The position numbers and the translations under genes were made by a program. DNA of 61,215 nt, counting the filler, from Perkinsus olseni (taxonomy: Eukaryota), in assembly GCA_013115125.1 (NCBI GenBank). It is 10 parts of 10 records of this genome, joined end to end, with 100 filler letters (N's around TTAATTAATTAA, not from the genome) between each part and the next. Parts side by side here need not be neighbours in the genome. Positions count along the whole stretch, not along the records: positions 49,130 to 55,126 come from JABANN010001141.1; 9 more parts are not named here. The stretch is one strand, 5' to 3'. This document shows positions 6,069 through 61,215 of the stretch, in pieces (within the stretch, counting starts at the first letter, position 1; every line of letters begins with the position of its first letter). A model generated the notes under the pieces. It was not told the DNA's origin, searched no databases, and saw only the letters and a program-made list of their open reading frames with translations.

Positions 6069-6168
6069 NNNNNNNNNNNNNNNNNNNNNNNNNNNNNNNN
6101 NNNNNNNNNNNNTTAATTAATTAANNNNNNNNNNNNNNNNNNNNNNNNNNNNNNNNNNNNNNNNNNNN
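6069..6168. other. Artificial contig spacer (also at 12225, 18372, 24517, 30661, 36785, 42908, 49030 and 55127; each 100 nt)
   Basis: Identical N44-TTAATTAATTAA-N44 linker with stops in all six frames; contig lengths fall monotonically from 6068 to 5989. Confidence 0.98.
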
Positions 6169-11018: not shown

Positions 11019-12356
11019 CGGGAGTCATCGCGTGTACCACGAGAGCACGCGTACACTCGTTGTGTCGCACGCGTATCTTTGTCTCCTTCGCGCGTGTGTC
11101 CCACTGTTGTGGAACCCTACGGGAACCCTACGCTCCGACAATTTCCCCTCCAAGAAAACCCTGGCTCGTTTTCTCTACGCAAGATTTTGTGCGGCGCGAT
11201 TTGCGCAGCGCGGAGTGGTAGAAATAGTATCTTTCACCAATAGCCCCGCTTTATGAGGATCATGATGCTCGGGCTGGTCCTGCACTTCGTCACTCCGTCA
11301 GTGCCAACCCGTATAGTGGTCACTTCAAGTGACCACTGTATGGGTTGGCAGTCTCGGCATTGCAACTATACGACTGGAATCTGATTGAGTTGAAAGTGAG
11401 CGGAAGACCCTTGTACAAATGTGTGCTCTATGAGCTGCCGCTTCACAATGTGATCGCCACCCTCGCCCCTCGACAATAGCCTGTTCTCAGCAAGACTATA
11501 CGCCGGTTATGCCTGCCAGGCAGGCGCTGCATGCTCCTAGGCCGAGATCGTGGACACCATGGGATGTATTTTGTAAGGTGAACTTCTTCCGCAGGAGGGA
11601 GTCCACCACGGTAAAATGCACTCCGAGTATGCGGCGGACTCCAAGCTGCGCTCTTCACAGCGCTCGCCCGAAATCGATCAGCTGCGCGGTGCGCTAGTTG
11701 GGGCCACCTCAGGTTGGTTGGTCGGTGTTTCTTTTTTTTTGGGGGGGTTGCGACTCAACCGCGTTCGCTTCGGTGGTTTTACGTGCTGCTCGCTCTCCTG
11801 CACGGGCTACGGGTCGCGTCCGTCTAGTCAACTCGTGCCGTCTTCCCTGAGGCTCTCTCTGTGGTTCCATGTGTCAGGATCCTCTAGCAGCACCGCGAGT
11901 TGGCCTATTTTCAAGGCCCGTTTTCCTGCATGTCGCACCCCCTCCCCTCCTGGAGTTGTCATCAAGGGCTCGTCGACCAGGCCATCATTTATTTCTAGTC
12001 CAGAACTTCTAGACGTTTCACACCAGGCTCGGCCTGGCAAGCTGTCCGTGCGTCGTTCGCGGACGTCAGGCTGCGGTTTCGCGGCCACCCTTTTATCTGG
12101 TTCTTCGTGAGCTCTGCTCCCTCGGGGATCTCGCTTGTTTATGACAAGCTTTTGCGTTCTGTTCGTCAGAATCTGCCCGTCTCCGCGATTGATCGTTCTG
12201 CCTTGGCAGTTGTCTCCCTATGGCNNNNNNNNNNNNNNNNNNNNNNNNNNNNNNNNNNNNNNNNNNNNTTAATTAATTAANNNNNNNNNNNNNNNNNNNN
12301 NNNNNNNNNNNNNNNNNNNNNNNNCGGCCTCTTTTTCGGTCAAAAAAAGTTTACTT

Positions 12357-16440: not shown

Positions 16441-18291
16441 TCATATATCAAAAGAGTCCATCTTCGATACCATAGACCTTGTTGGGGGCATCCTCCAAGT
16501 GAATAGTTGAAGGGCGGAACTTCTAAGGTCGAAGACTCGGACCAAATCTGAACTCAGAGTAGTCGTCGGGAGGAAGCAGTCAGCCGCAGTGGCGATCGGG
16601 ACAGTGGAACCAGGATCGGCCACGTAGAGCTGAACGGTCAGAAGAGGGCCATCTAGCGCAAGTACCCTTCCGTACATAATATCGTGATGACCATCATCAT
16701 GAGACTCCACAAGGGCGATGTCCAGACCTAAGCGACTGCGAGCTTGACGACATTTCGAGTCCAGAGTCGGGTCAGCAGAATCGAGAGTAGAGGGAACGGT
16801 CGGAGTAGGGCCTTCTTCAGTAGGGACGGGTTCGGCGGGGGCTTCAGCATCCGAAAGGAGCATCGAACGGTGAGTAGGCGGCGGCAGAGCATTGTCGACA
16901 TCGGTCCCAACCTCGTCCTCGGCGGGGTCCTCAGTCGTTCTAGGAGCAGCGTCGCCGACGTCGACCTTACGACAGTTGCCCAGGTAAACCTTCTCCTCCA
17001 GACCGTTCTTGCCGTTGATAGTAACAATAGAATGGTCGACGGCCCTCACAGTATAGGGGCCTCGCCATCTCCAGAGCAGCTTCTTAGTCATCGGTTGCCA
17101 CACATAGACCGAGTCACCGGGGTTAACGTCAGGCATACCAGGCCGTCGTAGAGTTTCAAGACGGGTCTTCTCACGACGATCCACCCAACCGGACTTGAAC
17201 TGAGACCAACGCTGCTGACGGATGGCGTTGACGTCCTCATAGACATCCAAGGGCACAATAGGCGGGACAGAGCCAAGACCTGAGTACAACTTGTCACCAA
17301 GGGCAGGGTCCAGAGGTTCCATCTCAGGGATACGGGCCTTGTTGATGAAGTGCATGTCATGAGGAGAGAGACCACCATCGTTCTCGGAGTCGGTGTACGG
17401 ACACGTGTTGACCACGCGGAGTGCACGGTGAAAGGTCACAGTCCAGTCGTCCAGACCACCAGACTGTTGAGCCACAATGCGCATGTAGTTGTGAACCTCC
17501 TTGTGAACTCTCTCGCCGTGACCCATCAGGCTTGGGCAGTGAGAAGGCAACAGCACCAGGGAGATCTTGTGGACTTGGCACCAGTAGCGGAACTCGCTAG
17601 ACCTGAAGCACTGGTCGGAGGCAATGAGAACAGACACCCAATCAGAGCTGTCGAACAGGATACCGAGCGCCTGAGAGATCTCGGTCGAAGACTTCGTGCA
17701 AGTCGTAGTCCCACGAGTATAACCCGTCATCAAATCGGTCACAGTGACTCCGAAGTTCGGTCGGTTCTCGGGCAGGTGGCCTTGGAGACCTCGCAGACCG
17801 TGGGTATAGGGACCAGTGACGTCTACCGTAGCAACCCGGCCGATGCCCAGGCATCCTGCCCAGGGTACGGTAGAGCCGAGAGAGCACCGAGCGATGTGGT
17901 CAAACTTGCTCACTTGACAGGGGTGGCATTGGTCACAGACATGCTTCACGGTCGTCCTCATCTTACGCCAGAAGTAGGCCTTGCGGAGGAGGTTGAGAGT
18001 ACCACGACGACCACGGTGGGAGAACTCATGAGCAGCCTTTGCGAGCCGTACTTGAAGAGCGGCGTCTGGGACTAATACTTGAGCCAGCACCGAAGTCGCG
18101 GCGTCGGTGTCATCGGGGATGTCCACAGCCGTGACTCTGACAACCAAACCGTCGTCGTTGATCTTGTGGTACCTGTCCTTCTTGTCAATGACCGCTTGTC
18201 TGATAGCACTGACACGGTCGGACGCATCTTGTCCATCCCGAAGCATCTGAATGGTCACGAAGTCATCGAACACCTGGTCTTCAGCCTGCAC
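16441..18291 (-). mobile_element. Ty3/Gypsy LTR retrotransposon pol, integrase portion (5'-truncated by contig end)
   Basis: HHCC zinc finger (HEFSHRG...CDQCHPCQ), DDE core (VDVTGP, SDQCF, GERVH) and GPY/F motif (WRGPYTV). Confidence 0.93.
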
Positions 18292-18518
18292 GATGTTAAC
18301 TTGGTGGACGGAGGCCTCGCTCTATGCGGGGTACCTCACAAATGTAGCGGCCCGAGCGGGGAAGGACCCGCNNNNNNNNNNNNNNNNNNNNNNNNNNNNN
18401 NNNNNNNNNNNNNNNTTAATTAATTAANNNNNNNNNNNNNNNNNNNNNNNNNNNNNNNNNNNNNNNNNNNNCGATCGTCCCTTACGAACGTCGACGGCCG
18501 CTACGCAACCCGAACCGA

Positions 18519-24450: not shown

Positions 24451-24616
24451 TGGGCTGGCCTTGAGGGGGTACGGCGATCCCCGACCATCCCGCTAGCTGC
24501 CTGGTGCTAGTGGTTCNNNNNNNNNNNNNNNNNNNNNNNNNNNNNNNNNNNNNNNNNNNNTTAATTAATTAANNNNNNNNNNNNNNNNNNNNNNNNNNNN
24601 NNNNNNNNNNNNNNNN

Positions 24617-30160: not shown

Positions 30161-30760
30161 CGATTTGCATATCAAAATGGCACACACTGTAGACAATGTT
30201 GTGTGACGAATCTGAGCGCTCGTGATAGGTCTGTGGTGGTCCTTGAGTATTTCACCGAGTCGACCATACTAGCTCCGGTCGAAAACCTCCGGTCAAGAAC
30301 CTCCCCTCAACCGTGTGAATACCTGCTTGCGCCTTTCTTACCCCTTCGTTTATTTCACCCTCAAACTTGCGGAGGTTGGACGCCGAGTGGTTGAGGGACT
30401 TTTGATCTAGAAAAACAATTATAGAATTGCCAAACATGTTTTGCCATGTGGTCTATGGGACTCATCATTTCTGTGTACCTTGTGATACCTACGTGGTGCA
30501 CGTAGCGTACATCCGGGTTTCCCAACGTTTAGCCATCATACGAAATTTGCTCGTACCCATTACTTATCCTCAAATGAAGACTACAGTTCAACGCCTATTA
30601 CATTAACTCAAGAAGCATGGCGGATTGGGTTGATTGGCAGAGTTGCATCGACCTGCGATGNNNNNNNNNNNNNNNNNNNNNNNNNNNNNNNNNNNNNNNN
30701 NNNNTTAATTAATTAANNNNNNNNNNNNNNNNNNNNNNNNNNNNNNNNNNNNNNNNNNNN

Positions 30761-35049: not shown

Positions 35050-36967
35050 TCCGGTCTAAGATGTGATCAACGGGAGCGAGTGAATTTCATCATACACAGA
35101 TTCTCGTCGTCCAATTCAGCGTGGGAAGAGGTGAGCCGGTCACGGGTTCACGCTTGCAAACCGTCACGTGCAGCTGCTATTCCCACCCTATTGTCACAAC
35201 GCGACAATAATAAAGATGAAAAAAGATAATCGCAGACGAGCGACCTGCACGACAGGCAAAGTGCTACACAACTGCTCTCATGCCTCCGACCAGACCACCC
35301 AACTCCTCTCGTCTCGCTCCCCCAAACTACTGGAGATCACAGTCCACACAAATACTGGGCGCACCTCCAAGCACTCCGCCGTAACGGCGGCGCCGTCGCT
35401 TCGTGCCCTTCAAGTCAAAACGCGGGGCTTGTAACATCGCACTCGAGATTAACGAACCTCAAAGTTGCGACCACTTTGAAGAGGTACTCGAGTACATCTT
35501 AGTACCACTCAACTCATTACATAACATTTGTGAGCGACTCATTTACTGTAAATGATTTACATTCAGGCGTAGCTGAGTAGCAGCGTGGCTCGTTACTTTG
35601 AGATAGATTTTTACGAAATCTTTCCGTCGAGTAGCTCTCGACTCGATGAGCTGAGCTGGCGTAACGGTCAGCCGCGACTTCAGTTACCTGACTATCCAGG
35701 TTCTAATCTCAGGCTATGCAATACAGTATTTAGTCGTGCGTATGCCGTGACTCGGATCTCTGTAGCCGACCGGCCGCATTACCACTAACCACGTTTAGGT
35801 ACCGGTTACGAAGTAGGCGCGTTTACTTTAGAGACGGAGACAATACCACAATCAGGTTCGCGAATCTCTTGTGAGGTCTGGGGAGGCTAGTTGCAGGAGT
35901 GCTTCAAGAGCTACACTGTCTATAAAGTTCAGTAGCTTGTGCGTTGTTGTTGATTTCCCGCCCACACCTGTGTTGGAGGCTCTGGGACGGTTTGACGTCG
36001 CCCAGGTCTCACGGGCTCATCGTGCCCCAGCAAACTTCGCATGTCTGCTGTTATGAGTTGCAGCATTGGCAGGATACTGGTTAGATCATAGTATGCCTGC
36101 TCTGAAGCTTGCTATGGTCTACGATGACACCGCCTGCTGATTACCTCGAGTACGTCGGAGTCTCACAAACTAACCTCAGGTGTGGACTCCACACCATTGT
36201 ATGACCAGACTGCGTTATCAGTGGCGGCACCGTGAGAACAAGGAGACAGAAACAGACCGGCTTGCTCCTCAACTCCAGACGCACCAGGGACTTAAAGTAG
36301 ACATCTTGAGGGTATCTACTTGAGTTGTGCTGCGGTCGACCAGAACTACATCATGCGCCATGATGCATACTTGTGTTATACCAACGATCTGAGTGACCGC
36401 CCGTGTTTTATCAGCAGGACGCGCCTATCTTGTGAGTGCCAGATCCTTCGAATCCAAATCTCGCGAAGAATTGAATCCACTATAACTGAACAACGCAAGA
36501 CATCCGAAGTGTATCAAACTCGATGATGACTGACAACAAAGTGAAACGACTAGAGCTAAAAGGAGTGAAACGTGAGAGAACAACAAACGGGGAATAACAG
36601 ATGATTACAACGGCGAGTAGCCATGACCAAGAGGACCGTCAACTTCCTGGTAGAATCCCCATAACGGCGATCATTGCTGCCCCTTCTCGTGTAAGTCATA
36701 ATACACACCTCTCTTAGAGATGAGCTCATCATGCGTACCATTCTCAACAACCCGGCCTTCAGATATGACGATGATTTTGTCTGCNNNNNNNNNNNNNNNN
36801 NNNNNNNNNNNNNNNNNNNNNNNNNNNNTTAATTAATTAANNNNNNNNNNNNNNNNNNNNNNNNNNNNNNNNNNNNNNNNNNNNCCACCACCGAGTGAGT
36901 ACCACGTTGAGTGGCAGCCTTCCCTCTGATGCTGCTCTGCACTGCCATACCGCCCTTCTCTCTTCAG

Positions 36968-41339: not shown

Positions 41340-43547
41340 TAGTTTTACGATACATTGGGTTGAGTTGATCAGTCTGGGCGCAGTGGCAATTTCAAGGATC
41401 GGCCGAGTTGGACTCGGGGCTGATTCCTTCAGCGCCTTCGGCGGACTTGACGTTTTGAACTTCCTGCACTTCCGCCAGACTCTGTTAAACACCATCAAGA
41501 CATTTTAGGCGACAATTTCGCGCCGAACTAAAATGTGAAATGAACGTTCTCAGGCACCGGAGCCCCTGGGTGTGGTCGAGACTCGACCACACTGCCGGTT
41601 TTCTCAGGATCGAAACCCGAACTTGACCGTCGAGTCGTCATTGGTTGGAGTAGGGGGAGGTGGTAGTCGCATCTGCAGAGTTGTTTTGTCAGATGAGCGC
41701 CTTCGAGATGTCGAGCGTGATGGAGCCTTCACCGTTGCGATCGGCGATTCCAGATGCCGCGCAGGGTACCTTCTCTTTGCTAGGGTTTTGTTATGAGATT
41801 GGCTGCTAATTGCGAACACGACACTCGAGTTTTGCCATCTGGAATCCCAGCTTTGATCTACTGTCTTGAAGAGTCTTCAACGAAGACAGCGTCTCGCATC
41901 CTTAACGATTTAGCTCAGCTTCTCCGCAGCTTCTTATCGAAGCAGGATAAGATCGCTGGTGTGAACATGACGAATTCGCCATTCTCCTCAGAGAAGATAT
42001 TCGACAAGGTAGAAGACGTGGGAACGAAGTTCGACGATTTTGGAGACTGATTTCTAGGTCGTCAAATGAACATCTCCTGCTGCATAGTTCGAATAAACCA
42101 TCGTTTTGCAACGCTAAGGGTGGTGGGCCTTTTCATGGGCAGATCCAGTGATGGCGTTCACAGGATCGTCGACGGGCGAACCCTCGGGCGCTTCCGGGAT
42201 GTGGATGAAATCGTCTTCCTCGACTAAGCCGCTCAACAGTACCTCGCGGGTAGGGGCCCGATTTTTTCTTCGTTTTTCTGGCACCTCGAGCTGCGTGTTC
42301 AAATGAAGCATAAGTGCCCTCATGCTATCGCATTTGACACCTTCTCATGCCTTTGCAAGAATTAACTATCTCGCCCGCTACGTTGCGTTAACGCTACTCC
42401 CGTTCTATCTCAGTTGCCACCTGTGATGGTGTCCGAGGACGAATGCCAAGAGATCTTTCATTCCACTGCTTCTTCACGCGAAGCGACGGACATCGGGAAT
42501 TCTTCGACGCCTTGGATTCCATCTCTAGCACGTAAGGATTACCTAAGCTAGTGGTGGAGTATCGGGTCGCATAGCGGAGCACCAAGGTTCCACTCCAGAA
42601 ACCAACTTCGTTGGCGGATTTTTCGAGTACCCTGCTAGGAGGAAGGAAAGCTTCCCTGTTTGAATGTACCCCAGAGAAGAACTCTCTGACAATCTATCTG
42701 ATTACATTGCATGTCAACGCTACAGAAAGTCTCCAACTGAGCACATCGGCAAGAGTAACTCCGCCGGATCCGACGTTGGACTATAAACTCACGCTGCGTG
42801 AGTCTCGCACACCCCATGGACTGCATTCACAGGGGGTGAAGCCGCCTGTGCACAGGAGATTGGGAGAGAGAGGCAATCGGGATAGCAGTAATGCGTAGAT
42901 ATTCACANNNNNNNNNNNNNNNNNNNNNNNNNNNNNNNNNNNNNNNNNNNNTTAATTAATTAANNNNNNNNNNNNNNNNNNNNNNNNNNNNNNNNNNNNN
43001 NNNNNNNAGCTGAGTGGGACAATGAGGGGGACAGCGGCACGCAAGTGGATATTAGAATGGATGCGACGGCCCTTCTGCTTGAGGTCAGTAGAAATTTAGG
43101 AATCGAGGCTCGCGTTGCTGTTCTGTTCTCTTCGTCAGAAAAGAACGCGACTCGAGACTGCTGCGCAGAGTGCCTTCCGAGGTCGGCGAGATTCCAGAAT
43201 TGGCGTCACTGGAAGCATCCTCGTTCCGCTAAGTGCGGGGACAACTTCATATTTTACTGTTTTCCATTCCCCTCAGTTCAGAACTCATTTCCACCTCAGA
43301 AATGATTGCCATGCTCGATGACTATCATACAAGGTCGGGCTATTCCCCAGGGCAAATAGAAACCAGATGTACAGGCGTGGTAGCGTACGGTTTGTTCGCC
43401 ATGATCAGTTCAGTGGGCGGCGGAAGAAAATTAGCAGCCCGCGCAGAGATGAAGGTGGGGGTGCTAATGAGTGTTTCACGACACCTGAAGCCTTTCGCTT
43501 CTGCTGGTGGCTGCGTGGGGTCTAAGCAACCTGAAGATTTCATTTTT

Positions 43548-49029: not shown

Positions 49030-50709
49030 NNNNNNNNNNNNNNNNNNNNNNNNNNNNNNNNNNNNNNNNNNNNTTAATTAATTAANNNNNNNNNNNNNNN
49101 NNNNNNNNNNNNNNNNNNNNNNNNNNNNNAATACAATTTGGGTACTCGATAAGAACATTCATTAGTTCGCCGCTCCGATCCCGGAGAATTCTGGGTTTCG
49201 ATCACGCGGTTTATTACCATTAAGACATTTATCAAGATCCCAGGGTTAGGAGGATCTTCACCAAGCTTGGTAACCAAGCCTTGGTTTCGAGCTTAGCATC
49301 AGTGAATCCTCAGGTGACCAGGCCTCGTCTGAGCAAGGGACGACAGTCACCAAGCATCAGTGCAACCGATCACTCCACTGGAGTGATGTCAGCCTGGACC
49401 TCCTGCATGCGCGAGAGTGGCCCACGATCATATCCGCGTCATTGACTTCAACTGGCAAATTTGTCAGCATTCCCAGAGGAGGCAAACTTTATCTCTGTAT
49501 TGCAGAGATAAAGTTTGACTCCGCATCATCGAGTCTGCAGTAGCCACCGCGATACGATCCCGAGAACAGTCAAGTTTTGAGATCACACTTATGGGTACGG
49601 ATCCGGTTTCGACGCACGGCTGTGTTGCAGACTGCAACTTGCAGTCCGGCCATCGTCCACACGAGATGATGGCCCGAGGACCCTTCGCCAATCGTGCCTT
49701 CTGCCGACGGTTCGCGGCAGCACACATGCTCGAAGCCTCGGTCGTCCCATCATGCCGTGTTACATACTGCGCAACCATTCTCGGCGTCTGCAGCAAAGTC
49801 GCCCCGAATTCACCTAGTAACTTGACAAGCATGCTAGGTTGATATAGGGCCCAACGGTCTGTTCCACAGCTCGTGTCGTATCCGGGCACAAGAGGAAAAG
49901 CCCCCTCACTCTTGGTTTCACCCACGTCTAACCCTGCGGGTTTAGCTCAGAATCAATTCGAGCGAAACGCTCGAGGTAAGTCCGACTTCGACGAAATGTG
50001 GAAATCGATTTCGCTGGTAGTAGGTTCAGTTTCCCTACGGTGACGGGTTCCGATGTCTGAATGCTGCAGGCTGCCCGTTTCGCCTATCAACATGCCAGAT
50101 CCAGTTCACAACTCTGGTGATGAGACCTACCCAGGGTAGGTATGCGGATCCTGACTGAGGAATCACAGCCATTGATCGGAATCAGTGTCTGATTGTGATG
50201 CACGATTGAAATCAGTGAAGTCTGATCCAGATTACATAAATCTGGTAAAGATGCATGATTAGTGATCCTGATTACTGACCCATGAGCCAGATCAATGATT
50301 GGTGATTGTGATTGATGATCCTTGATGTAGAACAACCGGAAGGCCAGTTGAGTGGTACGATTATCACCGTGGAAGAAGACGAGTGGGAATGTTCTACTGG
50401 ACAACCTCTCCCAGCGATAGGCCTGTGCAATAGGTAGATACAGCTCTATCCTATCCGATAATGCTCCGGAGGGAGAGAGAAACCTGCACTATAGTGAGAA
50501 CTACCTCCATCGCTGCTGCGTACCGGGTACGCCGTACCCACTTTGCTCTTCGTGCGCCTCAACTCGTTATTGTAGAGTTAAACCCGTAGAGCTCGACGAG
50601 GGTGGAACCGGTACAGAGGCTTAGCCCGGGCCCGCACGTTGCGCGAATCTCAGTCGCGTCCCGACACGAAGGTCTCGGGTCTTAGCTGGGCGCGCGACGG
50701 CAACCCCAT

Positions 50710-50895
50710 TGTTGAGATTATAGATAACGCAACATGACAACTTGAGCCAAGATGGCTACGTTAGTAACCTACCTCTCCTCTAGAACCTCTGATAATAAGT
50801 GCCTCTGTAAACCTCTAATGACAATAGCTGACGGCAAGACTGCACTATCTTGCACTCTTGCTATTCCTCTACAATCAATGTATAAATACTCAACA
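50710..50895 (-). mobile_element. Solo-LTR-like element (186 bp) containing a spliced-leader copy; TSD CCCAT
   Basis: TGTTGAG...CTCAACA termini; CCCAT at 50705-50709 and 50896-50900; SL-like 22-mer at 50741-50762 on the minus strand. Confidence 0.88.
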
Positions 50896-51212
50896 CCCAT
50901 GCGCAGGCTACGCTAGTAGCTGAACTGTTCCCTAGCGTGCTTAATTTTTTTCACCTAGACACGGGGAACAGCCCGCCGCAGGTCAATCTGTACTAACTCC
51001 CTGATCGCCGTCAACCGGCCCAGATCCTAGGTTTGATTCCCGACAGCTGTCACGGATGCGCCGTCAAGGTCCGACCTTGAAGGTCGTTCTTTGGGCGACC
51101 TTCACGGTGAAGGCTTCACCAGTCGGGCTTCGGGATCCGAAGTTCGGGTTCATGGAGGTTAACCTCTTGCCTTGCAATTGACGGTTATTTTGTGTGGCCT
51201 CGGATACCTGCC

Positions 51213-51284
51213 TTCACCCGGATAACAGCTTTCACCCGGGTCACGGGCGTAACCCGGCTAACAGCTCTCACCCGGATAACGGCT
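51213..51284. repeat. 18-bp degenerate tandem repeat x4 (TTCACCCGGATAACAGCT-like)
   Basis: Four consecutive units with an 18-bp period. Confidence 0.8.
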
Positions 51285-51585
51285 ATGTGCGCACGCCTAG
51301 CTCCCGCACGTCACGTCACGTGACGAGGCGTGTGCGCGTACGCAACCCACAACAGAGGAGTGGTGACTCAAAGAATGTTTCAAATGAGACACTTCACGAG
51401 GGGCGAGACTCGGCCTGGAGAACTGTGAATGAACCCTCTCAGACCCATCGGATTGTCTCGATCCATTGGTATAAGGCCCTGTCCGAGGCTCGTACTCAAA
51501 AGTTCGGGCGTTTGGATAGGATCTACGTAGATGCCACCAACCTCTCCCGTGGAGAGTCTTAGTTGTTCAATCTTCGGTCTTCCTC

Positions 51586-51774
51586 ATGTTCTTCCGTGTC
51601 GCTGTGGTATCTCTGCTGTCCTCGGTGCACATATGTGGTGCTTCGGCTCCATGCGGTCCCAACGCTTGCATAGGTTATGTCCTCACTGGTGGATACCGTT
51701 GTGACTCGGAGACTGGCAAGTGCTATGCCGGCCCATTTGGTGTGATCCCCACCGATAGACACTGCGCCTGCTAA
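51586..51774 (+). CDS. Small secreted Cys-rich peptide (62 aa)
   Basis: Signal-peptide-like N-terminus followed by a mature region with 6 Cys ending CAC*. Confidence 0.6.
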   Translation: MFFRVAVVSLLSSVHICGASAPCGPNACIGYVLTGGYRCDSETGKCYAGPFGVIPTDRHCAC

Positions 51775-51920
51775 TCGGAGCGTCACAGAATCCCTACGGC
51801 TGCCACTTGCAACTTCAGCTGACACTCCCGGCCCACCAAGACGACTATTTGTCATAGTGATCTATCGTGTCAGTTGCCTTCTCGCTACCAGAGACTCTAC
51901 CATCTCTCCGTTCATCTTCA

Positions 51921-51965
51921 CTACCCGAAATCACTTCCAACTACCCGAAATCACTTCCAACTACC
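51921..51965. repeat. 20-bp tandem duplication CTACCCGAAATCACTTCCAA
   Basis: Two exact copies plus a partial third. Confidence 0.9.
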
Positions 51966-52043
51966 TTTCATTACTCTCAAAGTCGCCACCTTTTATTTCA
52001 TCTCTAGAATGTCCTTTTAGGCTTTCCCCGACTTATCTGTACA

Positions 52044-52226
52044 TGTTGAGTATTTATATATTGATTGTAGAGGAATAGCAAGAGTGCAAGATAGTGTAGT
52101 CTTGCAGTTAGCTATTGTCATTAGAGGTTTACAGAGGCACTTATTATCAGAGGTTCTAGAGGAGAGGTCGGGGACTAACGTAGCCATCTTGGCTCAAGTC
52201 ATGTTGCGTTATCTATAATCTCAACA
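52044..52226 (+). mobile_element. Solo-LTR-like element (183 bp), same family as 50710-50895 in opposite orientation; TSD GTACA
   Basis: TGTTGAG...CTCAACA termini; GTACA at 52039-52043 and 52227-52231; SL-like 22-mer at 52177-52198. Confidence 0.88.
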
Positions 52227-53051
52227 GTACACTTCAAGGTTGAATATCCAATAAGAATTGCTAACTGGTTCAGCCTAATCCGTTCACTCGTGACCCTAAT
52301 AAATGTTATGATGTTGCTGTCGTCACCATCTCAGGATTCCAGATTTCTGCCTTAAGCACTCAACAGCTCAACGACCCTGTACTGTCATGCCCGTATAGGT
52401 CAACTTTCCTGGGTTGCAGTCGAAACGTACGTACGATTCTGTGTCAAGCCTGCTCCTGGATGGAAGATGATTCTGCATCATAGTCGCTGTCCCAATGCTC
52501 CGTATAACACCTTTGGTTCGTTCAAGGTGTACTCCGTTTAAGACAGTCTACAAGGTTCAATCGATCATTACAAGCTATTTTACAGTTATCACATCTGGTG
52601 TAGCTTTGAGTCAATGGGTTAATCACTGGCAATAAGCATTGACAACAACAGACAGGTGGCAGCCCTATTGTGACCATCACTGGTGGATGGAAAACTATCT
52701 CGGGACCAATATCGAGCGGCTCCCGATACTTCTTCGACTGTCTCTCCCAAGTAGCTGCTGCCTCCTCGTATGGCCTCCCTGTGATGTAAATGTCAAGTAA
52801 ATGTTGATACCTTCTTTTGTCGGATGAGAAGGCCAGAATACGATCCTCCACACTTCCCTCGATTCGCGGTGTCGACTCGTGCTCCCTCGAGTCGTTGGTT
52901 CCCGGCAATGATATCGCGGCAGCAAGGGCCCCATGGGCGTGAGTCACAACTGTGTGGCCAGCCTGCGTTATTAGTGGCCTCACCATGAGCGGGGCGCGAG
53001 CTATGAGCCTGATCGATATGAACAGTAGTTGCGTCACGCTGTTTTTGCTCA

Positions 53052-55082
53052 TTGATTTTTTATCGCTTACTTACCGTGGTCATGTTGAGTTCCCCCAGTG
53101 GGCAGGCAACCGTACATGGTGGACATGCCGGGGTAGGTGGAGTACCTACCTTGGTGAGCCCGGCGCTCGCAGGAGCCGTGAGACTGGCCGCGAGTAAAAC
53201 TTCGCCTGACCTTGACTGGGATACTCTGGCTACGCTACCTCCTATGCGATGTGCCGCACGACTCTTGGGCGTAATCTCTAACTGTGCTGGGTATAGCGCG
53301 TCATTCTTCTCAAACCGAGCTGGAACCCCAATCGGTCATAGCTTAACCGCTTTATGTGTGGACTGGGAGATCTTACCCCATCGCGACGCTATCCGTCAAG
53401 ACAGTGACTCTCTGGGTGCGGCCGTTAGAGCCAGCGGAAAGAACCTGTCAGACATAGCGAAACGATGGACCTTTGAAGGGGTGGATCAAAAACTCACTGC
53501 TGCCCTGGCTCAGTCGTGCGGATCCACAGCACCCTTGAAACTATGGGCGTATGTGAACCTTTGGCCGAGAGATTTGGCTGAGAAGCTCAAGAGTGAGCTA
53601 CTCAAGGAGATTTACACAGAGGATGGCGAGGTTGATCGCACCTGTGAACTGCTTGCTTGGACACATCTAACCCAATCTGGGAAGGGGCTCACAGCAGAGG
53701 AGAGAAAGGCCATAGACACTCAATACCCTCGCTGGATGGCCGCATGCTCCCGAGTGTTAGATAAGATGGTACAAGCGAGACAGAAATACCAATCTCTGAC
53801 TGACCCCAAGTTATCAGTTGTCGGCTTACTGGAAGAGTGGGCCACTCTACCCTCTCTCGCGGGCCACGGAAGACGCGGGAGGGTGACCTCTCTCCTTGAG
53901 AAGGAGCGCAAACTCTATACCAAGCTCGATGCCCATCCTGAAGGGACAACTCTATCCTGGGTAACCCGCAAGGCGTGCTACCTCTCAATCCTCAAGGCCT
54001 TCCCTCGAGTGAAGAGGAGTGGTGAATCATTTATAATGCTTTTCCAGTCGGTCAAGAGCAGTCAGAGCTATGAAGAGGTCCTAGACGTTCTCTCTCGCCA
54101 CGCCTATAAATCTGGTTACAAGGACGCGGACGAACTCCTCGGTGGAGGGGATGAGGACCGGGCTCAAGCGACTACTAATGGGAAGCGAGAGCACCGAGAT
54201 GATGACATTCCTCGACCCAAGTTCAGACCTCCCAACTCCAGGAATGGTCGAGAGCGTCGAGAGAAAAGGCCAGACCCACAAGCGGTTCTAACCTCTAAGT
54301 CACCGGGATCGAGTGAACAAGGGCGAAAGCGACCTACTTCATTCTTCGCCACTGAGCAAGACGGCCCAGCTAAGAAGAGGTCAAGACTCACCGCTATTGA
54401 TCATGCGAAGGCTAATGGTGTTACCGAGTCGCTTGCCAAGGAACGGGTTGAGAAAGGGCAATGTGCCATCTGTGGTTCTGCTGATCATTTCGCTCGAGCT
54501 TGCCCGAAGAACTCCCGTTCGGCAACTAAACCTGGTGGTACCCGATCTCACGAGGACAGTCGTAAGACTAACCGTGATGAAACTGTACTTCTCACCATGG
54601 GAAAGGCCGAGGTACTCGCCGGAACAGTTGAGGTCTCTACCCCGGGCCCTGCTGTCGGGGGAAGGAGTCGTCTGGTTCACGCGCGGGCCGGCTTCGATAC
54701 GATGTGCTCTCAGAACCTCATCACCAAAGGCATTGTTGATCTGCTGGAGGCCACTCCTGTCGAGGGAGAACAGGTGCGGCTCCAAACAGCCGGTGGTATT
54801 CGGGAGGCTAACGAGTGGGTTACTCTATCCGTGAAAAGGCCTGGTTTCCGGGTCCAGCTGCCGCTCTTAGTCGTGGACTCGTTACCTGGGGTCGATCTAC
54901 TGGTCCGCAAGGCTGACCTATCTTACCTCGGGTATCAAATTGTAGACCGAAAATTTTCTCCTGTAAATAGGAGCCACCACTATGTCTTTCTGCTCGCCCC
55001 TCCCGGGCGGGCCCACCTGGAAGAGATCCCCAGTGCATCGCGAATAAAGTGGGCCACAACACCTCGTCCCCGCCAAACCTGA
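53052..55082 (+). mobile_element. LTR retrotransposon Gag-aspartic protease ORF
   Basis: CCHC knuckle CAICGSADHFARAC followed by retropepsin motif AGFDTMCSQNLI...DLLV; pol is cut off by the contig end. Confidence 0.85.
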
Positions 55083-55226
55083 GCAGATCCTTAGCAGAGG
55101 CAATACATAAAATCACGGGATAGTTANNNNNNNNNNNNNNNNNNNNNNNNNNNNNNNNNNNNNNNNNNNNTTAATTAATTAANNNNNNNNNNNNNNNNNN
55201 NNNNNNNNNNNNNNNNNNNNNNNNNN

Positions 55227-55312
<86 letters not shown>
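55227..55312. repeat. (AAT)n microsatellite
   Basis: Direct run. Confidence 0.95.
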
Positions 55313-55313
<1 letters not shown>

Positions 55314-55350
55314 TACTACTACGTGTTAGTATCATCATCATCATCATCAG

Positions 55351-55502
55351 GTTGCAGCGATACATGGCGACTGTCGTAAAGTCTTGGACGTCTGCCGTCA
55401 TACCATCACCAATCGTATAGCTGACAGCAACAATAATAGTCAGCAGGATGATGATAATAATAATCATGAAGTTACAGCATTAGATGCAATCAAGGTTCTA
55501 CC

Positions 55503-55541
<39 letters not shown>

Positions 55542-56294
55542 AGTGTTGGTGTTGTGATTATGCAGTTGTTCATCTTGGTAAGGTACTTGACAAATGCTAT
55601 CGTAAAGATGATGAGATTGACAAGACGGTCGAATGTTTGCCTTTTCAACAGCAGGTCATCATCATGCATTCTCATCGCCTCGCATTCTGCTTGAGTATTA
55701 TCCTGTATATCAGGTTGTCTTAGCGTCTTGCCTCGCTGCTGCTGGTGCGACTGGTGCTGCTAATCAAGATGGTGGGTCACTAGAGACTGGTATAGATGTA
55801 ATTAGGGATCATCTTAATAGGTAGTATTATCACCAATAAGAATAATAATAGGTATGTTATCATGAGTAGATACACTGAGTTGCATAAGATGCCTTCAGTG
55901 TCTCGTGAAGCATTCCATGACTATCTACAAGCTATAGCAGTATGATGATGATGATATAACGACGGCTTGTCGATCTTGTCGATCATGCTTCTCTCAGGGT
56001 AATGGTTTAATATCAATCTCATCATCAACAGCCACTAAAGGAGTTAAAAGGGTCCCTCCCCCTACCAGAAGGCGGGCTCTTCGCTCAAGACCACCACCAC
56101 CTACTACTACTACGACTGGTCTCACGATGAATGATCATAGCAACAATGGAAGCTTCATTAGGTGGGGCCATATTGTACTACTCAATAAACATGTACTTGT
56201 TAGGTTCATTGCGCCTTTCGAATCGTTATTGCATGGTATATTATCGTATGGCAATAGACAGCATTTTGAGGAGTTCCTCAAACCATGTATTTGA
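55351..56294 (+). CDS. CDC6/ORC1-like replication initiator, 3' exons only
   Basis: VAAIHGDCRKVLDVCR (sensor-2/lid region) and LPFQQ/VVL (start of the winged helix). Confidence 0.65.
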
Positions 56295-56543
56295 ATATGA
56301 TATTACCCATTAATGAAGGTATATAATGACCATTCTCGATAGTACCCGATATCGAAGTTATTTTATCATGCAGTTAGTCCATGTCTCCTCATCATCATCC
56401 ATACCTTGTGTTATGTCAGAGTAATACTAATTAAACTAAACATTCACAGAGACAGTGAAATATTATGATAAACAACATCGGCTGTTGAACAATCGTCGTT
56501 GTAAATGTACAAACATTCATCATCATCATCATCATCTTCATCA

Positions 56544-57089
56544 TCAACCAGCTAACTTCACTTTAACAACGCCACTGCTGTTTCGTGATTTCTTCTTATT
56601 CTTATTCCTCCTCCCCTGTGTTGTTGTATTACTGGTAGTGTTACTACCAGTATTACCTGCCAGCGACACTCATATTATCAACTTTCAACATGCCTACTAC
56701 CGGTAGTGATAACTCTATCGAATGCTTCAGCAACATCAAATCCATCGTAATACCGTGATGATGATGGCGGTGGGGGAGCGAACTCTCTTTCTAATTCCTC
56801 TTCTGAATTTAAAGCCTCTTCTTCTGGTGTAAGACGACCTGATAATAATTCAACTATCATACCAACATACCCCTCATCGACTACCAGTAGTAACCATCCT
56901 ATGAGTGGCGGAAGTAGTAGGTATACCTCTTCCCATTGATGATGATGATGCTACTATTGTAGTTGGTTGTGGCGGCCTTGACGATGATGATGATGATACA
57001 GTCTGATAATGATATCGAGTATTATCATTGACATTATGACCAGTAGTAGTAGTAGTAGCAGCTTACATCATTGATGCTATTGTTGTTGT

Positions 57090-57145
<56 letters not shown>

Positions 57146-59298
57146 CGTGATGAATGTACTGTTGGGGCAGTGGATATTAATCTAGTAAACTCTTCCTTAT
57201 GTATTCTGTCCTCGGCTTCTATTTTCAGTTTATCTTCTTTATGGGCCTTCCGTCTCTGTTCTTTCCGATATTTATATTTCCTATCGATTTGTGGTGTGAG
57301 CGCTTCGATTGTGGCATGTGAGAGCTTAGTAGGTTTGATAAAGTCAACATCAACAATACTCGCAGTCGATCCTGACGATGAATAAGACGAATAAGCGATA
57401 CTATCAACAACAAGAAGAGCCCCTAATTTAAGCGTTGTTATTATTATTACCATGTACAAGATGTGCCAATGATCTGTATTTCTTGCGAGATGCTATTGAT
57501 GAGGTATCGTCAATGGCAACATCTTGAATGCTTACAACACGGCATCTTATCATGCGTGGTAATAAATACCTACCACCGCCACCAGGATGATGATGATTAT
57601 GCTGTCGAGCTAGAATGATGATGAAGCAGCAGTTCTTACATCGAATCGAATGCATCAGGTTTACCAGTATATTCTACCATTAAACATTTAAACCATAAGG
57701 GATCAAGATACACATGACCTCCACCATATGATAATTGGTAGAAATACGTATTAGACGACGACGAAGATGATGATGGATGGGGATGGTCAGCAGAATCGTT
57801 ACTAGTACTAGTAGTAGTATTAACATCACTGCTGTTTGTATTAACAGCATGTTGTTGTCGTTGATGATGATCGTTTTTCCTTATCTCCTCTGCTTCATCG
57901 ATTATAGCATTAGTAACAGTATCAGGTATTAATATACCATTATCATCAGCATCATCACCCCAGCGTCCACGCTCATTACGATCATGATCATCAGCATTAT
58001 CATGATGGTCCAATGATTCATCTTGTAATTGCTTTAATACATGATCTCGGGCCATATATACACCCATACATTCCAAATCGTCCACCCATTCCTCGTCTCT
58101 TATTCTATTATTCAACCTGTAGTAACAATGATAATAATCATCATCAACACCCGTAGTAACTGTATCATTATCATCAGATCGTCGTATTATTACCGCTTCA
58201 TCTCCCTATACAATAATATCCTAACTTCATCATTATTATCATCATCACCCACATTCACTACTCGAGAATATCTCCACCCAAAATCCCTACCCTACACACA
58301 ACAGCTATGCATACCCCAGGCAGGCGTAAATGCATGGGCTGTATATTTATTATGGTCATCATTACTACTACCATTCTAGGTGGGATCTGTATCTTGTTCT
58401 TCTTATCGTCATATCCACATTTATGGTTCAATGATTTTTGTAATGTATCAGCATCGAAAGGACGGCATATACCATCGACAACCTCACACAGATTGAATGT
58501 TATAATCTGAAGAGGAATACAATCATCATCATTCCCCATGATGATGTTGATGTTGTTATTACATCACCACTTCTGGGTTTACCATCCATTATCTCGATCC
58601 TCACGGGCTTCAACTCCCTCAATGTTATTGCAACATTACACACACAGCATTGCCCTATCAATTATAAAACTCATGAAAGCGATGAAAGCAACATGATGAT
58701 GATGATGATTGTTGTTGTTATTACTATAATCTTGTAAATAACGTAATGCACATGATAGACACATAACATGGCCACATTCTGGTATGCGGGGTACATCCGC
58801 TGTACACAAGCATATCGGGCATATTGGTAATGATGATTTATCCCAGACTGTTATATCAACACCAACTACATACTTCCATGGTATGAGATAATCAGGATCT
58901 ATTAGGAGCAGTAAGAGGAATAATGACCATGAGTGGCAGCAGGTATCCTCACCTGCTAGCCTGGCATTCAACATTTCAGCATTCCCTTGATGTAATCTAT
59001 CGTGTTGTTTATTGCTGTTGTTATCATCATACCGCACCAAAAGACGGTATGTATGGGAGAACTTACCAATCATCCTGTTCTTATAATATCGCCGTCCCTC
59101 GGATGATGATGACGAATGTTGTTGCTGCTGCCAACCATAGTAATAATAATAATCATTATAATAATTACCAATATGATGATGTTGTTGTTGTTGTTGATTT
59201 GGTGTATAGGTTACGAATCCAGCAAGGTCATTGGCATTCAACCAGTGTTTTGACGATGAGGATGATGATGAGGAGGATGGATTACCCTTTCTGGGCAT
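56544..59298 (-). CDS. RNF10/Mag2-like RING E3 ubiquitin ligase, multi-exon
   Basis: LNANDL..F, DPD..IPW..V, C3HC4 RING CPICL...PRIPECGHVMCLSC, YFYQ...G.HVYLDPL and RKKYRSLAHL. Confidence 0.85.
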
Positions 59299-59448
59299 AA
59301 TGGTTATACTGTTGTAGTAAGCATTACTCACCAGCAGCAGCAGCAGAGGTAGTAGTAGTGGTGGTGGTATGATGATAATAACACAACATGATTTAATAGT
59401 TATATCACGTGGCAATAAGAATAACAGCACATCTTCAGTACATTTACA

Positions 59449-59514
59449 CCACCTTCGTACAGCCTTCGTACAGCCTTCGTACAGCCTTCGTACAGCCTTC
59501 GTACAGCCTTCGTA
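59449..59514. repeat. 11-bp tandem repeat (CAGCCTTCGTA)n
   Basis: About 5-6 direct copies. Confidence 0.9.
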
Positions 59515-59521
59515 CTTGCAG

Positions 59522-59612
59522 TCATGCAGCACAGTTCATCATGTTCTTATTGTTATTCCTTTTTACTATCATAATTTCCTTCAAGCCGTGCATTGATGAT
59601 GTGTTGTTGTTC

Positions 59613-59644
<32 letters not shown>

Positions 59645-59759
59645 AGTGATATTATAAGTACCTGGTCCAATATTAGGATATCTACCACTCGTTGTCAACT
59701 TTGTAAAGTCGGTACGTTTACCACCATACCCCAACTGCCTACAACAACAGCAACTTCTG

Positions 59760-59803
<44 letters not shown>

Positions 59804-61000
59804 GTTATGATGATGATGATGATGATGATTATCCTGAGAAGGGCAGCAAACAGGAGGCTCATGATGATGACGTGTTACCTGTGGAGAACTACTCTGGCCT
59901 CCTGATGATGATGGAGTTGTTGAGGAGTGTGATGATATATTAAATCGAGGGGCCGTAGTAAAGGTACATCCCTTATCATTATGATTATACACAGGCAGGC
60001 CTCTACGAGTATTACCATGATGTCCTTGACTAAGAATACTTATTATTATTATCATCATCATCACTCAGTGTATTGTTATTACATAGTTTTTCTGATTATC
60101 CTGTTACTATTATTATGATAAGATAAGTCCGTTAAAGTAGCATACATTCTCTTGATCTCCTCCATACCACCATCTATCAATGGTAGACCAATACACCACT
60201 TTGGACCACCACTCTTGTATGATGATGATGATGTCGTCGTAGAATTATTATTATCATTGTCGTCGTCTTGATGATGATAATGTGATGATAATGTATCACT
60301 ACTACATTGTGTACTGTTGTTATTATTAAACATACTACCAAATGATGTGCGACCTGATGATGACGATGATATACATGGTACTAGTGCATATCATGTACTC
60401 TCTACCTTTCAGTGTTAATCTACAATATTTAATACCATCTATGGGTGATGACATCTTATTAACACTAGTACGATAAGTGTATGATGCTGGTCCAACTGAG
60501 GAGGAGGAGGAACAGCAACAGCGGCCCAACAGCAACAATCAGTTGTTGTTGTTGGTTATTACCTCTTGTATAGCAAGTTTGTATATAATTAGGTCTATCA
60601 CCATAACCACCAATGTTGTTGTTACTACTTTTATTATCATATCTGCCATATTCACACTTCCCCTCCTGCTGCTTCCTCTTCACATCATCAATCCAGCCCA
60701 TGCTACTACCATCATACCTACATTATTGTAGTGAGTATTGATAGTAGTAGTACTGTTGTTATCACCATCACCATCACCACCACTACCTCGATCCTTCTTG
60801 CTCCTTCCCACTGCCATGTTTGCTCTCTTGCCATCTATTAGCCTTACCAAATGTTGATGATGATGTACTTATCATCATACCAGAATTCCTGCTCACTACC
60901 ACTACTGATGACGATGGTGATACTCTATTATTGTTATCATCACCATTAGCGTACATAACACCACCTTTGGTATTGTTCATTATTTACTGCAAGATAAACT
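59522..61000 (-). CDS. ODF3/SHIPPO (sperm-tail PG-rich repeat)-like axonemal protein, multi-exon
   Basis: Repeat motifs STFGKANRW, VGPASY, FTTAPRF and IGPGTYNI; boundaries approximate. Confidence 0.55.
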
Positions 61001-61143
61001 ACAAATAAGAGCATAATAATGACGAGCATCATCCCGAGCTCAGATCGGGTCGTTGTCCTTCTCATGATGCTTCAGTTCGTTGTAGTGTACTATGATGGTA
61101 AAACATGTCCAGACCAGCAGCAGCATGATGCTGAGTATCATGT

Positions 61144-61215
<72 letters not shown>
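61144..61215. repeat. (ACA)n microsatellite
   Basis: Direct run at the window end. Confidence 0.95.

Follow-up and report, generated by a model that had tools for sequence, protein, structure and literature searches.

Two probable solo long terminal repeats in Perkinsus olseni

The window analysed here is a 61,215-nt stretch of Perkinsus olseni DNA (assembly GCA_013115125.1), within which two copies of a short repeated unit each harbor, close to the 3' end, a nearly exact copy of the Perkinsus spliced leader. The units are probably solo long terminal repeats (LTRs) of a transcribed retrotransposon family, with the leader copy as a relic of element RNA that was trans-spliced and subsequently reverse transcribed. 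The window consists of ten separate assembly pieces, ordered by length from 6068 down to 5989 nt, and both copies lie entirely inside the piece at 49130-55126 (JABANN010001141.1). As the pieces are separate and merely joined by spacers, features of different pieces are not neighbours. The two units, their target-site duplications (TSDs) and the putative promoter and U5 segments are as follows.

50710-50895, minus strand: solo LTR copy 1, 186 nt, TGTTGAG...CTCAACA
50705-50709 (left) and 50896-50900 (right): TSD CCCAT of copy 1, by direct reading
52044-52226, plus strand: solo LTR copy 2, 183 nt, TGTTGAG...CTCAACA
52039-52043 (left) and 52227-52231 (right): TSD GTACA of copy 2, by direct reading
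52051-52062, plus strand: TATA-like run TATTTATATATT near the LTR 5' end, a candidate U3 promoter
52199-52226, plus strand: 28-nt tail 3' of the leader copy, candidate rest of U5, followed in other copies by AA and TGGTACCCGATGCAGGATTCG

The copies were compared by direct reading of 50600-52350, with a repeat finder, by global alignment and by BLAST. Their identity is 94.6% (BLAST), and global alignment places 7 substitutions at unit positions 16, 54, 63, 66, 126, 129 and 130 and a single 3-nt indel immediately 3' of the leader copy, the same differences that an initial annotation of this DNA had counted by hand. Both copies (2/2) have TG...CA ends with short, 7-bp terminal inverted repeats (TIRs), and both are enclosed by a 5-bp duplication, the chance of each 5-bp flank match being 1/1024. 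The TGTTGAG/CTCAACA ends and the separate duplications CCCAT and GTACA, likewise described at the outset, were read again at both copies. BLAST detected no third copy of the unit in the whole window, the next-best match being 21 nt long (E = 0.009).

Further copies of the family were followed in public sequencing runs. Eighteen runs cover part of 50400-55100, none of which (0/18) is recorded as RNA, and four of them (X1, X7, X8 and X12) were placed on 50600-55100, in the form of assembled contigs throughout and not of reads. Contig depth is one figure per contig, which measures neither copy number nor expression and cannot rank the parts of a gene. Run X1 is DNA-like, with a depth of ~40 on every unique bin. 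X7 and X8 are taken to be RNA from their uneven depth and adapter letters: depth in X7 is 32 on the intergenic bins 50902-51505 versus 780-1,800 over 51506-52713, Illumina adapter letters are present at X7 contig ends, and X8 is without cover on several stretches present in X1. X12 is tentatively treated as RNA as well. Stretches without RNA contig cover (in X8, 50600-51203 and 53167-54978) carry no evidential weight. One X1 contig (depth 42) links 50709 to 50910 through 17 unlike letters and lacks copy 1 as well as one of the CCCAT repeats. This joint looks like a diverged empty-site allele of copy 1, and at least one insertion of the LTR family may still be polymorphic.

The embedded spliced leader

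The 22-nt leader of Perkinsus marinus, PmaSL1, is printed as ACCGTAGCCATCTTGGCTCAAG in a passage of PMC3101222. The leader copies, together with a motif resembling a branch point, were located as follows.

52177-52198, plus strand: leader copy in copy 2, AACGTAGCCATCTTGGCTCAAG, 21/22 to PmaSL1
50741-50762, minus strand: leader copy in copy 1, AACGTAGCCATCTTGGCTCAAG, 21/22 to PmaSL1
52174-52179 (plus strand) and 50760-50765 (minus strand): ACTAAC, putative branch-point motif, overlapping the first leader letters

The leader copy occupies unit positions 134-155, so that 28 nt remain to the unit 3' end in copy 2 and 31 nt in copy 1, in keeping with the 21/22 match that had been placed ~133 nt from the 5' end and ~30 nt from the 3' end. 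When the last 20 nt of the 22-mer are searched with up to 3 mismatches, exactly 2 places are found in the window, against 0 expected from 100 shuffles. The fifth-letter A of ACTAAC precedes the G of the terminal AG by 20 nt, and this spacing, already proposed for the branch-point A, was read at both copies.

The leader does not belong to a spliced-leader RNA gene, as had been stated before: its terminal AG is followed by TC or TT and not by a GT donor, no intron follows, and Rfam returned 0 matches at E up to 1 within 49130-55126. That the repeat captured by chance a fragment of such a gene, or a retroposed host mRNA, is the least probable of the explanations weighed here. In its favour, this is a leader in DNA without a demonstrated function. 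A gene fragment is opposed by the missing GT donor or intron and by the empty RNA family search of the piece, and a retroposed mRNA by the absence of a poly(A) tract and of coding sequence 3' of the leader copy. Both are further opposed by the position of the leader, which is internal to a repeated unit of 183 nt with ends and TSDs of its own and stands at the same offset in both copies.

The initial annotation had proposed that the one mismatch to the host leader creates the branch point. This step is unnecessary, as ACTAAC already results when ACTA precedes a perfect leader, and in X8 a third copy reads ACTAAC-T-GTAGCC where the window copies read ACTAAC-GTAGCC. The motif is thus independent of the mismatch, because it is formed by ACTA and the leader's own first two letters. 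The simplest ancestor suggested by these sequences would be ACTA with a perfect ACCGTAGCC..., from which the window copies would have lost one C and the X8 copy would have exchanged C for T.

All three distinct copies (two in the window, one in X8) deviate from the host at leader letter 3, which is deleted or T, while in 3/3 the final 19 letters of the leader agree fully with the host and ACTAAC is retained, so that 57/57 letters are intact. Confinement of variation to the third letter is, with so small a number of copies, no more than suggestive. Identity between the window copies alone is not evidence of constraint because only 7 substitutions separate them: 0.84 changes are expected in 22 nt and zero would occur 43% of the time. 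It is on this ground that an inert fossil may be argued, namely a leader captured once that has no present role and persists since the family is young. With 7/183 sites differing, an unchanged leader would arise by chance in ~43% of cases, and the variation within the relic touches only cap-proximal letters. The same variation can be turned against a fossil, in that both relic changes fall within the first 3 letters, the 57 other letters are all intact and ACTAAC survives the T variant. In addition, relic leaders are reused as acceptors in dinoflagellate retrogenes, according to passages of PMC3942190 and PMC6050394. An inert fossil is, on balance, rather unlikely, although it is the strongest of the alternatives.

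Two side observations concern the same sequence. An X12 loose end behind 52179 shows TGTAGCC after ACTAAC and then departs into CGGGCATTCACCAGCG..., a copy or transcript whose relic is broken after its ninth letter. Furthermore, an ATG in the leader complement (AAGATGGCTACG) opens an antisense frame of 54-56 amino acids that in both copies crosses the entire LTR and leaves it at the 5' end.

50752-50916 (plus strand) and 52017-52187 (minus strand): antisense frame from the leader complement

With a probability of ~0.1 for 45 stop-free codons, this frame was judged to be a chance product.

Flanks of other copies

The assignment of the unit to an LTR is strengthened by the flanks of copies outside the window. 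An X8 contig (record 28, 2473 nt) aligns to 52058-52226 with no substituted letter and a single inserted T, and continues past 52226 as AATGGTACCCGATGCAGGATTCGCCGACGC... for ~2.3 kb, in which no second LTR is met. Both in this record and in X7 (as the reverse complement, before 50709) the terminal CTCAACA is followed by AA and TGGTACCCGATGCAGGATTCG..., so that TGG... begins 2 nt after the terminal CA. The reverse complement of this 3' flank reads CGAAT-CCTGC-ATCGGGT-A-CCA, which is in exact register with a tRNA 3' end: CGAAT is the end of the T-loop, CCTGC one strand of the T-stem (5 nt), ATCGGGT the acceptor strand (7 nt) and A the discriminator, followed by CCA. Moreover, CGAATCCTGC equals the T-arm letters of a tRNA-Ser in another piece of the window. 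The 3' flank, judged from its letters, has the look of a primer-binding site. The primer-binding-site-like 21-mer is absent from the window, and the LTR-specific pattern was absent from the metagenome, genome and viral collections searched.

On the opposite side, purine-rich ...CCACCTTGGGGGGCCGAGA stands directly before TGTTGAG in X8 and X12 contigs, which enter the unit 5' end from ...GCTCTATAGCCGCCACCTTGGGGGGCCGAGA (X8 before 52043; X12 behind 50895). The purine tract GGGGGGCCGAGA in both runs occupies the position of a polypurine tract. Copies of the unit elsewhere have one constant flank per side, as the contigs of X7, X8 and X12 share them. A complete element would accordingly be predicted as a pair of units around TGGTACCC... 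to ...GGGGGGCCGAGA, with pol.

These flanks also bear on a miniature inverted-repeat transposable element (MITE), that is, a non-autonomous DNA transposon with 7-bp TIRs and a 5-bp duplication which acquired a leader-bearing cDNA fragment. The unit is only 183-186 nt long, its ends are 7-bp inverted repeats and both window copies stand alone, all of which would suit such an element. Flanks of a MITE would be random, and the contigs of X7, X8 and X12 instead join the two unit ends to two constant, different flanks, one of them a TGG flank with tRNA-3'-end geometry, the other purine-rich, with one contig reaching ~2.3 kb further. A DNA transposon is on these grounds very improbable. The LTR reading, by contrast, is well supported: the LTR-like character first assigned to the unit is borne out by the TG..CA ends, by the 5-bp TSDs and by what other copies have beside them, a primer-binding-site-like flank and a purine-rich one, and the internal sequence expected beside some copies is present as the ~2.3-kb interior of X8 record 28.

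Orientation, ends and abundance of the RNA

Strand orientation can be read from adapter letters. An X7 contig end before 51555 shows R2-side adapter letters, then CTCA, then AG-TCTTAG of the window, and CTCA with AG constitutes the last letters of the leader. The R2 side hence marks the RNA 5' side, because R2 adapter and leader end coincide where the plus-strand gene begins, at 51555. In both LTR copies the R1-side adapters are toward the RNA 3' end (before 50787 in copy 1, minus strand, and behind 52171 in copy 2, plus strand), from which it follows that the abundant RNA of the LTRs has the same sense as the leader copy. Adapter logic thus suggests that the element transcripts run sense to the leader, and not antisense to it, the orientation named beforehand as adverse to any use of the leader.

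Fragments on the RNA side have 3' ends at unit positions 109 and ~121-128, upstream of the leader copy; the second of these is uncertain by ~7 nt, the stretch resembling adapter there. Point depths in X7 are 28,823 at 50842 (position 54), 18.6 at 50770 (position 126), 3,287 at 52179 (position 136) and 8,889 at 50737 (position 159). Taken together, these figures hint weakly that the bulk of the RNA bearing the LTR terminates shortly before the leader copy, where the R/U5 border would lie. Summed depth in X1 is 230-610 on LTR bins vs ~40 on unique bins. In X7 it is 25,000-46,000 on LTR bins vs 32 on intergenic bins and 1,100-1,600 on the neighbouring transcript, and in X8 ~490-550 vs ~40 for the flanking transcript. 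From such depths a multi-copy family is hinted at.

The initial annotation had proposed a fuller model, in which the relic is a working trans-splice acceptor of genomic RNA, and the host leader takes its place at the 5' end, pairs with the copy in the 3' LTR and so serves as R region during minus-strand transfer. A length of 22 nt is sufficient for an R region. The position of the leader copy, 28-31 nt ahead of the LTR end and the primer-binding site, is that expected of an RNA 5' end, ACTAAC precedes the AG by 20 nt and the transcripts are sense. Against the model, the RNA 3'-side ends at 109 and ~121-128 and the fall of X7 contig depth upstream of the leader hint weakly that the leader is absent from RNA 3' ends, and to that extent contradict its use as R. 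A complete strong-stop copy would also rewrite the host's first letters, yet 3/3 copies differ at letter 3, a mismatch that might be explained by a block at the cap or by early transfer. The model as a whole is considered distinctly unlikely, and a self-renewing acceptor made of leader and ACTAAC, whose same 22 nt guide minus-strand transfer, would be just as unlikely.

Origin and possible use of the relic

The explanation favoured here, which is held to be probable, is that the two units are solo LTRs of a tRNA-primed, transcribed LTR retrotransposon family and that the leader copy is the relic of a reverse-transcribed, trans-spliced element RNA. The solo LTRs would be products of LTR-LTR recombination, in a perkinsid with a PmaSL1-type leader. 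Element RNA would initially have been trans-spliced ~28 nt upstream of the primer-binding site, so that its 5' end was the leader. Reverse transcription of this RNA would yield strong-stop DNA ending in the leader complement, and once this DNA was joined to the template 3' end the leader would have become part of the LTR, at the R/U5 border or immediately 3' of it, to be copied thereafter as ordinary LTR sequence. A leader in that position agrees with the fragment-end hint and speaks mildly against the leader as R, since RNA 3' ends would lack any leader that follows the poly(A) site. The leader likely entered the LTR by capture from trans-spliced RNA.

A present function of the relic as R is unlikely. 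The likeliest present use, put forward with some doubt, would be that ACTAAC and the terminal AG of the relic still act as an acceptor. Acceptor use would yield a leader-capped, translatable mRNA, and unspliced RNA, keeping R, would be the replication template. Leader-joined element RNA would read host leader followed by TCATGTTGCG.

A number of points weigh against the favoured explanation. No leader-joined element RNA is shown among the contigs, which cannot display a leader tip one letter off the genomic copy, and the RNA status of X7 and X8 is itself deduced. The contig results rest on 24/93 loose ends, 32/279 contig pieces and 40/156 letter differences. Conservation of the relic is indistinguishable from neutrality with so few copies. 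The empty-site-like contig of X1 has 24 letters on its shorter side besides the 17 unlike letters and is maybe a paralogue. The displayed contigs give 30 letters of each loose end; no full-length element occurs in one piece among them, and a non-autonomous family is possible, gag-pol in the ~2.3-kb interior being at most putative. Finally, no priming tRNA was identified: the 18-mer taken from the 3' end of the implied tRNA has 12 metagenome loci, of which 0/12 are in a tRNA and one has an unrelated tRNA-Arg elsewhere. The A-U end pair and A discriminator of the implied tRNA presumably recall initiator tRNA-Met.

If the favoured explanation holds, the two copies provide DNA evidence that the RNA of an LTR retrotransposon was itself leader trans-spliced, reverse transcribed and reintegrated, by the capture route proposed above. 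The relic-leader mechanism, known from host retrogenes, would thereby also apply to the elements regarded as the source of the reverse transcriptase, and the RNA 5' end of the ancestral template would be placed to the nucleotide. A leader 20-40 nt before an LTR 3' end would offer a simple marker for surveys of perkinsid and dinoflagellate genomes. The arrangement also bears on retroelement strategy where translation needs a trans-spliced cap, whether by division into spliced mRNA and unspliced genome or by use of the leader as R. Should the self-renewing acceptor and R be true, a host RNA-processing tag would have been turned into a retroelement replication signal.

Relation to known systems

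Associations between retroelements and spliced leaders take several forms. SLACS, CZAR and CRE of trypanosomatids are non-LTR retrotransposons which insert into leader RNA genes. They share with the present family a retroelement physically tied to spliced-leader sequence; unlike them, the leader exon alone is found inside the element here, and the two insertions are at unrelated sites. Relic-leader retrogenes of dinoflagellates were reportedly first described in 2008. As set out in parts of PMC3942190, PMC6050394 and PMC12014239, their relic leaders derive from reverse-transcribed trans-spliced RNA and can be trans-spliced again. The likeness is that a host leader entered DNA via reverse transcription of trans-spliced RNA, the route proposed here. 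The relic in Perkinsus, on the other hand, lies within a retroelement LTR and not at the start of a copied host gene, is full length, without the 5' truncation of the retrogene relics, and was spread with each insertion.

Among LTR retrotransposons, the portions of PMC3315495 on Cer1 (Ty3/gypsy) of C. elegans report a subgenomic mRNA that carries SL1, with the 8-kb gag-pol RNA not trans-spliced there. Cer1 is thus a comparable case of LTR retrotransposon RNA as a trans-splicing substrate and a precedent for a spliced mRNA beside an unspliced genome. Within those portions no leader copy is described in the Cer1 LTR, and the host is an animal whereas it is an alveolate here. The ta-TRIM elements of Echinococcus are described in sections of PMC4558846 as non-autonomous LTR elements expressed on a massive scale, with numerous solo LTRs. 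Common to both are short LTRs, solo LTRs within host transcripts or next to them, very abundant RNA and an interplay with trans-splice acceptors. According to the same sections the ta-TRIM LTR differs in donating a promoter and a cis donor which competes with the leader, with no embedded leader; the interior of the present family, at least ~2.3 kb, would be longer than the few hundred bases, without coding capacity, of a TRIM.

Perkinsus transposons treated in a portion of PMC3706591 are tRNA-targeting Dada elements. Two papers on Symbiodinium retrotransposons mention leader terms 0 times (PMC5776459) and once, in general terms (PMC5890265). A leader inside an LTR was not described in the full-text literature searched, Repbase entries and supplementary files being outside its reach. 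An LTR retrotransposon family with a relic leader in its LTR would appear to be new, relic leaders in dinoflagellate retrogenes being known already.

Neighbouring genes and other repeats

A host gene is situated between the two LTR copies.

51555-51774, plus strand: host gene, probable leader acceptor AG at 51555-51556

It encodes a Cys-rich open reading frame (ORF) of 62 amino acids with a hydrophobic N-terminus (51586-51774, plus strand). X7 record 18 and X8 record 27 start at 51555/51553, where the DNA contig X1 record 1 runs through, and reach 52086/52087, inside copy 2. A leader-capped host mRNA is plausible for this gene, and solo LTR copy 2 may lie in, or terminate, its 3' UTR. Past copy 2, RNA-like contigs of X7, X8 and X12, from three studies, begin at 52272-52275 (46-49 nt beyond its end), and the DNA contig X1 record 2 runs on from 52198 through these positions. 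The AG at 52272-52273, with GCTAAC 8 nt upstream, could be a second leader acceptor, or this could be the 3' end of a minus-strand transcript. As CTAAC stands close upstream of that AG, there is a weak hint that ACTAAC fits local usage.

Further downstream, 52951-55126 belongs to a different multi-copy retroelement fragment, the boundary of which, at 52951, starts with TGTG. It contains a 686-codon open frame (53022-55082), cut by the piece end, with a CCHC knuckle (weak Pfam match, E = 0.005) and a protease-like stretch. DNA contigs over this repeat have 3-15x unique depth and reveal copies that are ~5% divergent; cover is low in X7 and nil in X8. This gag-protease ORF, 800 nt downstream, was rejected as the interior of the LTR element: copy 2 has a duplication of its own, X1 shows 52227-52950 as unique, the repeat of the ORF starts only at 52951, and X8, which supplies the contig of LTR plus interior, is without cover there.

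Another retroelement fragment is represented by a 626-codon open frame at 16441-18321 (minus strand), which runs to the end of its own piece and matches Integrase_H2C2 (E = 2e-13) and, weakly, an MLV-integrase C-terminal domain, with no leader-like sequence nearby. It was likewise rejected as a part of the LTR element, being in another assembly piece. Neither the integrase ORF nor the tRNA-Ser nor the AT-rich last piece stands physically beside the LTR copies, because all three belong to other pieces, the limits of which are set by the following spacers.

6069-6168, 12225-12324, 18372-18471, 24517-24616 and 30661-30760: spacers, N44-TTAATTAATTAA-N44
36785-36884, 42908-43007, 49030-49129 and 55127-55226: spacers, N44-TTAATTAATTAA-N44

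Smaller repeats are present between the LTR copies as well. Four 18-nt direct repeats of the type CGGATAACAGCT-TTCACC occupy 51201-51284, and a palindromic stretch at 51279-51325 is repeated elsewhere, with an X1 depth of 289 and an X8 contig of 1048 nt that matches these 47 nt only. The last piece of the window (55227-61215) has 39% GC and long codon-repeat runs, a composition unlike that of the other pieces.

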